NCBI GenBank assembly: GCA_964234715.1
Contig: OZ174276.1
Direction: 5' to 3' (one strand)
DNA length: 64,000 bases
From: Podarcis melisellensis
Taxonomy: Eukaryota
Both the position numbers and the translations under genes were made by a program. Shown here one piece after another: positions 45,001-48,000 of this stretch; position 1 is the stretch's first letter, and each line of letters opens with the position of its first letter. The notes under the pieces are model-generated. The model did not search any database, had not been told where the DNA came from, and was given only the letters and a program-made list of their open reading frames with translations.

Positions 45001-48000
45001 GCGTTTAAATTTTATGCTGTGCCAGGAAGGGGAACCTTTTTCAGCCTGAGGACTACGTACTGCATTCTGGGCAAGCTGCCAACGGCAGTGAGGCCAGCGG
45101 CAGAAGTGGGCAGAACAATTAATGTAAATTTTACCTTTGTAGAATAGGCTAGTTTCTACACCCACTCACATACCCTCATGCATCCCCCATCCAGGCAAAC
45201 AAGAGGCAGTAACTGAGTTCATGGGCAGATTTCAGCCTGGCAAAAACACTCAGGGTGCAAAACAGGGTCAGTGAGGGGTGTGGCCTGGGCAAAGTGCCAG
45301 GAGCCAGACAGAGAGGCTTGGAGAGGTGCATTCAGTGGCAGAGCTTCATGCTCTGGCACCGGGGGCAGAGAGGAGGCGGGGGCATGGCTGGCGCACGTCT
45401 CAGGAGTGTGACGCACCACCTGCGGGGGCAGGGCGCCCAGTGCGGGTGGGGGAGCAGCCCTGATGGCACCCTGGGGATCGCGCTGCCAGGGGCGGTGCAC
45501 TCCCCTTGCACTCCTCTTCCTCTGCCAGTGGCTGCATTGTGCCAGGACCTGCATTGTACCCTTTGCGTTTCCCAGCTTTTAGGACCTTCTGTCCACAAGT
45601 GTGAAAGTTGCACGGAAACTAAAGAGTCGTGCTGGAGAAGCAGGAAACGTTTGCCTTGTTGGCTTTTCCTTCAGCAAATGAAATATGGGGGTGTCCATTT
45701 CCCCCTTAAATCTAGACTGTGAGATAAGCCTGGAGCAAATCCCTGAGTCTCTTTAACCAGGAGAGTTTGAAATACCTCTCCTTGCATTTTCAATACTCAG
45801 ACCCTCTAGCCCAAACAGGGAGTCTCCAGAAGCCAAAGTACAATATTCTCTGGCCATTCTGAACTAGAGCATGTGATGGTTCAATAACAGCAATGGGAAC
45901 AGTGCATAGAACATAGATCACACCACACTGTGTGCTTCAGCAGCAGCGTCTACCGAAGAAGAGATTTGCTGCTTATTTTTGCACTAGGAGTTAAGTATAA
46001 TTAGCACGTGACAACCCCCTCCTCTCTCTCTTTCTCTCTCCCTGCCTGACTCAGATGCCTATCCTAAAAGTGAGATTATTTACACCTGGAAAAAAGGACC
46101 ATTGTATTCGGTGGAAATTCCACAAGAATCTTCCAGTCTTCTCCAGTATGATCTTATAGGGCAAACAGTCTCTAGTGAAACGATAAAATCCAATACAGGT
46201 AAGATCACACCTGCATGCAGGGTGTCAACATTAGAATATGACCACTGAGATTTTCAACATGGTACTTTTTACACGCTCACAGTGTGATTTGTCTATGTGT
46301 CCAATGGCCCGCTTGCTCCAACTGCTAGTCCTTTGGAGAATAAATAAATGTATCTATTGCTGGGAGTTCTGATTGCTCCTCCCAGTTCCAGGCCACATCT
46401 CTTTTCTGCCATGCAGAAGGCGGTTATAGGCTGATGTGCAAAGGCAAGGAAGCGGGTGTGTTATGGGACAATGAATTCACACTTTGCCTCAAAGCTTCCT
46501 AGGCAAAACAAGCTAAAATACCATTTTATTTGCAAGGTTTATATACAGCAGGAACACTTGGGAAATACAAGATGTTGTCTTGGGTGTAAAATTCAGCTTC
46601 CTGTGCTCTCTTTCATTACCCCCCCCCAAAAAAAATTGTTTAGTCCATATGGTTGTGAAGTTATGCCTGGAAATTTGTGGACAATGTCTGTTGAAATCTG
46701 AGAAGCCTAGCATTTCAAAGGGACGTGGACAAGGCCTCCCTAATATAAAGTAAAACCAGAATTCATTGAAAAATATGGGGAAAATGCAAAAGGGTAGAAT
46801 ATGTTTGCAAATGCAGCTTTTCCTGATAACAGAATTATTATTTTTTAATGATGAATACACACAGCCCTCCCTATGTGTTTATTTAAGACATTCCAAGATT
46901 CTCTAATACATGGACAAAGATAATGCTGATATACTTGTTTCCTAACAGGTGAATACGTAATAATGACTGTTTATTTCCACTTACAAAGGAAGATGGGCTA
47001 CTTCATGATTCAGATATATACTCCCTGCATCATGACAGTCATCCTCTCTCAGGTGTCTTTCTGGATTAATAAGGAATCTGTTCCAGCTAGGACAGTTTTT
47101 GGTATGCTGGTATTATCATTCTGCCCGAAACCACTCTGCATCATTCCATTTATCCACCATTTTTCATTGCTTTGTGTGTTTCTCATAGGCGAGTATTCAC
47201 TTCAGGTACTCTATTTTCATCTGCAAAGGAAAATAGGCTACTATCTCATTCAGACATACATCCCCTGCATTATGACTGTAATCCTGTCCCAAGTTGTGTT
47301 TTGGATCAACAAAGAAGCTGTCCCAGCAAGAACTGTGGCTGGTATTCATGCTTTCTTCTCATGACCTTCATTTGCTCGTTGCTTCGTTCGTTCAGGGTAT
47401 TGTACTGCGATAGAGATTAGCATTGTTTTTAATTAAAGAATGTGACAGAGGAAAACTATGTGTTGAGGATTTACCTGGGGGTAAGTGCCACTGAATCTTC
47501 TGTGTAGTCATGGATCTAACTGAACTCTTGCTGGGGAGATGGTTTCTAATGAACTTCCATAGGATCTCATTGCAAGCCTGTAGCTCTGCGGCTCTAGGAA
47601 TTGAGTGCCACTGAATGCTTCTCTGCTCCTGCCAGTGGAAATGAATAGTACTTGCTGTGGCTTCTAGCTCAGGCTGTAAATCTGTTTATTGGGTACATGG
47701 CAGTTACACAAAGAGAAGTTGGTGTGTGCAGAGCTTGGAAGCCTGAAAAAGGATACATACAGAGGCCTAACAGCTTCCTTGTCACCCTTATTTTGCAGGG
47801 ATCACCACTGTCCTCACAATGACTACGTTGAGCATCAGCGCCCGCCACTCTTTGCCCAAGGTGTCTTATGCTACTGCCATGGATTGGTTCATTGCTGTGT
47901 GCTTTGCCTTTGTCTTCTCTGCACTTATCGAGTTTGCAGCTGTCAACTACTTTACCAATCTTCAGACTCAGAGAGCAATGAAGAAGGCAGCCAGGGCGGC

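Follow-up and report, generated by a model that had tools for sequence, protein, structure and literature searches.

A second, ancient exon 7 in the GABA-A receptor alpha6 gene of a lizard and its possible use in photoreceptors

GABRA6 of the lizard Podarcis melisellensis contains two copies of exon 7 lying side by side, which raises the questions of (i) whether the second copy is a genuine alternative exon, (ii) how it would change the alpha6 subunit of the GABA-A receptor, and (iii) where such a subunit would be used. The window analyzed here is a stretch of 64,000 nucleotides of contig OZ174276.1 (assembly GCA_964234715.1), and the portion of the GABRA6 gene inside it spans 36056..63660 on the plus strand, with the coding exons mapped and all those found open. 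Its identity as alpha6 is given by the matches of the window exons to named alpha6 records. The upstream constitutive exon 6 (46055..46198, +) ends within loop C and is followed by exon 7a, the canonical alpha6 exon 7 (46949..47101, +), an intron of 87 nt (47102..47188, +), and exon 7b (47189..47341, +), an alternative exon of 153 nt that encodes beta10, the pre-M1 segment, M1, the M1-M2 linker, and M2 up to 3′. Exon 8 (47799..48058, +) supplies the remainder of M2, M3, and the beginning of the M3-M4 loop.

A few features of the gene outside exon 7 are recorded in their own right. Exon 2 (36427-36442) apparently has two donors, and the lizard record P0001 is 5 residues longer there than the bird record P0095. 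The start of the M3-M4 loop in exon 8 (47960-48058) is alanine-rich, and the bird protein P0095 has the same. Exon 9 (63364-63660) runs to a stop at 63660; P0001 and P0095 exit just past M4 with a C-terminus that differs from the exon 9 reading in the window, so that alternative C-termini are possible. Intron 8 holds an open stretch (55135-55881) that presumably resembles the endonuclease end of a retroelement.

A search of the lizard genome with exon 7 returned 27 matches, two of which lie side by side at the GABRA6 locus only. That other subunit genes might also carry exon 7 twice was considered and rejected, each of those loci giving a single match among the 27. The exon 7 neighbours on contig C2 are of the beta, alpha1, and gamma2 types and form a cluster of beta-alpha6-alpha1-gamma2 type, with names assigned by motif. 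Two beta-type exons on different contigs (C19 at 5.88 Mb and C20 at 50.07 Mb) have an identical peptide and translated flank; the pair could reflect a true duplication, the two sex chromosomes, or sequence assembled twice.

Exons 7a and 7b agree in phase and length (153 nt each), and both are bounded by AG upstream and GT downstream. The two have 103 of 153 bases in common, and their 50 codons divide into 14 that are identical, 23 that differ silently, and 13 with a residue replacement. The peptide of 7a equals that of the mammalian alpha6 records examined and that of the solved alpha6 chain 9oum_C across 49 aligned residues; the best named match of 7b is a Podarcis muralis record, at 100% over the exon. 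A sequence-only reading of the window had listed 13 substitutions in 7b, and codon-by-codon comparison with 7a finds all of them real and the list exact. The same reading held that 7b retains the PAR motif of the anion filter, the M1 Met, and the neurosteroid Gln and Trp, which is borne out, as are the M2 positions that it assigned to two replaced residues. In the human alpha1 numbering of PDB 9crs_B the exon begins at residue 209, the replaced Ser of KESV is alpha1 S251, and the replaced Phe is alpha1 F258; because rodent V251 is -3′ and G258 is 4′ (PMC4410641), S251 is -4′ and F258 is 3′.

A protein search with 7b returned 629 matches, and the best 120 of these comprise 89 with 7b only, 21 with 7a and then 7b, 1 genomic read-through, 2 gene fusions, 6 without 7b, and 1 unclassed. 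The 7b carriers among the matches listed are sharks, bichirs, sturgeons, bowfin, lungfish, frogs, turtles, lizards, and birds, and the 7b-only proteins carry both PF02931 and PF02932, i.e., the Cys-loop ligand-binding domain and the four-transmembrane domain. Both exons were collected for 25 species, 20 through double models and 5 through paired isoforms; this set consists almost entirely of predicted models and over-represents close kin; within it, mean identity is 91% among 7a exons, 84% among 7b exons, and 72% between 7a and 7b inside one species. Lizard 7b is closer to the 7b of shark (86% identity) than to its own 7a (74%). In the exon tree (50 columns, with a bootstrap that is not fully settled), all 25 7b exons fall, together with 5 exons of teleost gabra6a, on one side of a branch with support of 100/99. 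This 7b clade spans sharks to birds and therefore places the duplication of exon 7, on the evidence of the tree, before the split of sharks and bony fish. Exon 7b is almost certainly a real and ancient alternative copy of GABRA6 exon 7.

No mammalian 7b occurs among the matches listed (the best 120 each of 629, 1544, and 285), and the single mammalian alpha6 model examined, P0192, has 7a alone. These are weak evidence for a loss of 7b in mammals, because 90% clusters hide isoforms. Automatic isoform predictions already contain the exon (Pogona XP_020664035, Harpia XP_052628168, Xenopus XP_031754593, and Amia XP_066573091), and the predicted GABRA6 isoforms of RefSeq and UniRef include it either as 7b only or as 7a plus 7b, all as automatic models only. 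A literature search of titles and abstract openings, with few subscription journals, returned no paper naming, dating, or testing exon 7b, and the passages from PMC7585415 and PMC8012850 are uninformative about both the 3′ residue and the isoform.

Across the 25 7a and 25 7b exons, columns 3, 5, 15, 18, 36, and 50 have no shared residue, and column 6 is nearly of this kind. Exon 7b has Ser or Ala at 3, Gln at 5, Ile or Leu at 15, Tyr at 18 (once Cys), Val at 36, and Ala at 50. Two of these residues belong to the beta10 Ser-Leu-Gln (47197..47205, +; alpha1 211-213), where Ser/Ala and Gln are diagnostic of 7b; position 5 is Gln in 25 of 25 7b exons and Met in 25 of 25 7a exons. The M1 Val at the position of alpha1 S244 (47296..47298, +), a putative packing partner of M2 3′, is present in 23 of the 25 7b exons and is replaced once by Ala and once by Gly. 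The M2 3′ Ala (47338..47340, +; alpha1 F258) is the invariant hallmark of 7b, and the change from Phe stands out among those listed by the sequence-only reading: every one of the 25 7b exons has Ala here, and none of the 20 paralogous exons compared, taken from the 27 genome matches, has it. Gln5 and Val36 are likewise absent from the paralogous exons, which have Met, Ile, or Leu at position 5, Ser at position 36 in all 20, and Phe, Leu, or Ile at position 50. Conserved across the aligned 7b exons as their signature are Ser/Gln in beta10, Val in M1, and Ala at M2 3′. None of the 25 7b exons departs from PAR (-2′ Pro, -1′ Ala, and 0′ Arg) or from the M1 Pro, Met, and Trp.

Other replacements that had been put forward as 7b specialisations do not hold up as such. 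The M2 -4′ Ala (47317..47319, +), which gives KEAV and had been counted among the key sites, is lizard-specific; with KEAV in 1 of the 25 7b exons it is ruled out, and non-alpha subunits often have Ala at -4′ themselves (12 of 15). The Thr-Tyr-Ile at the start of M1 (47254..47262, +; alpha1 T230) does belong to QTYIP, which is the alpha4 sequence as had been claimed (7qn5_A and 9sl1_A). It is the ancestral state instead of a 7b-specific one, with Thr at this place in 13 of 25 7a exons. QIYT is confined to the 7a exons of the 9 amniotes, which makes the furosemide residue a gain of amniote 7a and not a 7b specialisation. That residue is Ile228 of alpha6 M1, which we take to set furosemide sensitivity and for which the literature search returned no relevant paper. 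If the Ile228 rule is right, 7b receptors would be less furosemide-sensitive, as would the 7a receptors of sharks and frogs, and the lower sensitivity of 7b receptors would be a by-product. Furosemide block is selective for alpha6 (PMC11339754). The residues after the loop C Tyr had been expected to shape the benzodiazepine pocket; position 4, though, varies freely in 7b (Leu in 12, Gln in 7, Ile in 4, Met in 1, and Val in 1), and alpha6 has Arg anyway. The pocket-facing 7b position matches alpha5 I215, which we take to be a determinant of this pocket, and the exon 4 translation confirms Arg at the benzodiazepine-site His position in lizard alpha6.

The likely effect of the 3′ replacement can be read from beta subunits. 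Residues beta2 L277 and beta3 L278 are assigned to 3′ because beta2 G254 is 4′, together with precursor offsets that we assume to be correct. The smaller 3′ residue of beta2 L277S raises GABA sensitivity by approximately 2.7-fold (delta logEC50 of 0.43) and halves the maximal current (PMC11296288), and the larger one of beta3 L278F shifts the EC50 from 0.46 to 4.96 uM, i.e., to an approximately tenfold lower sensitivity (PMC10741827). The 3′ position falls between -3′ and 4′, two positions whose mutation strongly changes desensitisation (PMC4410641); the 3′ residue is absent from the desensitisation-gate mutants in the passages and table of that paper. The 10′ residue touches M1 Thr264 within its own subunit (PMC7336760), and by this geometry 3′ would face alpha1 S244, two helical turns inward of the 10′-Thr264 contact, so that the residues Ala50 and Val36 may compensate for each other. 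Their coupling is not strictly required, because teleost 6a does without the Val. In alpha6-7b, the missing bulky Phe at 3′, partly filled by Val on the facing turn of M1, would leave M2 looser at its inner end, next to the desensitisation gate, which would probably raise GABA sensitivity or change desensitisation, and chloride selectivity would be kept through the PAR filter. This gating prediction extrapolates from the beta-subunit mutants; a single-sequence fold of protein P0047 reached a mean pLDDT of 38.6 and offered no usable structure.

Zebrafish gabra6a (NP_957025/AAH59508) is of 7b type. Teleost gabra6a resembles 7b in that its exon groups with 7b and has the 3′ Ala in 119 of 119 rows, with the M1 Val36 in only 4 of 119. 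The records examined, including cluster members not chosen by the query, have the 7b-type exon only. Unlike lizard GABRA6, gabra6a is a gene of its own, these records show no 7a form of it, and the whole subunit has diverged: a tree built without exon 7 splits the 6a from the 6b lineages, with long branches for gabra6a along its whole length. Among the 6b genes, those of Paramormyrops and Scleropages keep both exons, and the one 7a-only case is an odd cod-like model, P0191. A comparable process is the separation of splice isoforms after gene duplication (PMC4494069), in which one teleost paralogue likewise keeps one ancestral exon; unlike a clean separation, the present one is incomplete, with two osteoglossomorph 6b genes retaining both. 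The main text of PMC4494069, a survey that started from human exons, makes no mention of GABR genes.

Exons 6, 7b, and 8 are joined in P0095, a complete frame of 465 aa on a 3038-nt Logan contig whose cluster partner is a bird protein, and because of this joining the contig must be a transcript. Each exon is found alone, 7b in the P0095 contig and both in paired 7a-only and 7b-only models of other species. The 7a-7b intron contains 8 YCAY motifs, is AG-free before the acceptor, and is in frame and stop-free; its length is also 29 codons in the read-through protein P0002. Eight YCAY in 87 nt has a p of 0.017 against 10,000 dinucleotide shuffles, for one species and as noticed post hoc. The 40 flanks of paralogous exons contain at most 4; the window has two further stretches of equal richness. 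An AG-free intron arises by chance in 10% of shuffles. Steric exclusion between 7a and 7b was not accepted as demonstrated, since the branch-point-like A residues at intron bases 51 and 65, counted from the 7a donor, do not force it. Downstream of 7b there is no UAG enrichment (3 per 200 nt against a background of 2.4), and a Musashi-type UAG cluster was rejected for lack of excess over background.

NOVA1 protein is absent from mouse photoreceptors, and the sequence downstream of the exons that these cells skip is enriched in NOVA sites (PMC4991804). Acting through the YCAY cluster that follows 7a, NOVA would steer ordinary neurons to 7a, and 7b would be taken in photoreceptors, where NOVA is missing. 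In zebrafish, gabra6a is expressed mostly in the photoreceptor layer (PMC5922542), and robust photoreceptor expression of Xenopus alpha6, cited in the same paper, is a gene-level result; Xenopus alpha6 is one gene with both exons. Photoreceptors of turtle, fish, and salamander have clear GABA-A chloride currents, and the mammalian evidence is scant (PMC7735995). The gabra6a and Xenopus expression, the GABA currents, the YCAY motifs of NOVA type, and the absence of NOVA1 from mouse photoreceptors together suggest that 7a is used in NOVA-positive neurons and 7b in photoreceptors. With odds slightly better than even, 7b is the photoreceptor isoform of alpha6 with altered gating, spliced in for 7a mainly in photoreceptors, and alpha6-7b would belong to the GABA-gated chloride conductance of non-mammalian photoreceptors. 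Against this reading stand the missing oocyte current of zebrafish alpha6a and an in situ scoring without eye signal (PMC7973766), both described below. The sequence-only reading had overlooked how old the exon is, its tie to teleost gabra6a, and the pointer to photoreceptors. A more tentative extension, which we hold to be possible and not probable, is that alpha6-7b is the GABA-A alpha subunit of the photoreceptor terminal outside mammals, a default form in the absence of NOVA that was frozen in teleosts as gabra6a and lost by mammals.

Conservation indicates that 7b is used and not where, and 7b might instead be a functional kinetic variant of the tetrapod brain or of development, the photoreceptor bias of gabra6a having arisen after the teleost genome duplication. 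The divergence of gabra6a over its entire length and the scoring of zebrafish alpha6a at 5 dpf, with forebrain and midbrain marked and the eye not (table of PMC7973766), agree with such a variant. It is nevertheless unlikely: Xenopus alpha6, with both exons in one gene, is reported in photoreceptors (PMC5922542), and the YCAY cluster sits where a switch between neurons and photoreceptors is expected.

It is also rather doubtful that alpha6-7b is silent with the usual beta and gamma subunits, either because it needs beta4, delta, rho, or an accessory protein or because it is a silent or dampening subunit. This possibility draws on zebrafish alpha6a, whose currents never exceeded 200 nA whichever of beta1, beta2, and beta3 it was combined with and whether or not gamma2 was present, under conditions in which alpha6b worked (PMC7973766). 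Among the papers searched this is the one published experiment on a 7b-type subunit, and it bears on the expectation of the sequence-only reading that alpha6-7b would still be a chloride channel subunit. It also draws on the Gln where 20 of 20 paralogues are hydrophobic, on Ala for Phe, Leu, or Ile at 3′, and on the halved current of beta2 L277S (PMC11296288). The oocyte negative is weakened, however, because alpha4 was likewise silent, beta1 and beta2 gave nothing with any alpha, alpha6a was never combined with beta4 (PMC7973766), and the alpha6a reference of that study, NP_957025, is missing 40 residues. The gap, which includes the end of M3, is seen against Danio aesculapii P0383, and the RefSeq protein is probably not a working form. 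The PAR motif and the M1 Pro, Met, and Trp, invariant as described above, are moreover what is expected of a working subunit.

Both exons being multiples of three, double inclusion preserves the frame, and the 21 models of 7a plus 7b among the 120 listed matches range from shark to bird. The main alternative product could be this form, 51 residues longer and with an extra membrane helix, serving as an off-switch for alpha6. Every such case is a predicted model, though; an off-switch exon needs no exactly conserved peptide, and 7b-only transcripts and 7b-only genes exist, all of which makes this account very improbable. An origin of 7b as a dead copy of recent date or through misassembly is practically out of the question, for although the lizard locus is known from the assembly alone, the 23 silent versus 13 replacement codon differences and the identical peptide in a named lizard record speak against it, and the conservation of orthologous exons across jawed vertebrates already refutes it.

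Mutually exclusive homologous exons occur in the glycine receptor alpha2 (3A/3B, NOVA-regulated), in insect RDL (3a/b and 6a/b), and in the insect nAChR alpha6, where, as with 7a/7b, tandem exon copies swap part of one subunit. The glycine receptor alpha2 and RDL pairs sit in the extracellular domain; what 7a/7b exchanges, unlike them, is beta10 together with M1 and the inner end of M2, in a vertebrate GABA-A subunit. We know of no swappable M1/M2 exon in mammalian GABA-A receptors, and vertebrate GABA-A diversity is usually inferred from mammals. A second gate-forming alpha exon kept across jawed vertebrates amounts to a natural experiment on M2 3′. Zebrafish gabra6a should not be treated as a simple copy of alpha6, and part of M3 is missing from its RefSeq protein. 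If true, a photoreceptor-terminal alpha6-7b would explain why GABA chloride currents are clear in fish, salamander, and turtle photoreceptors and scarcely seen in mammals, and it gives the long debate on horizontal-cell feedback a named candidate for the photoreceptor GABA-A receptor.
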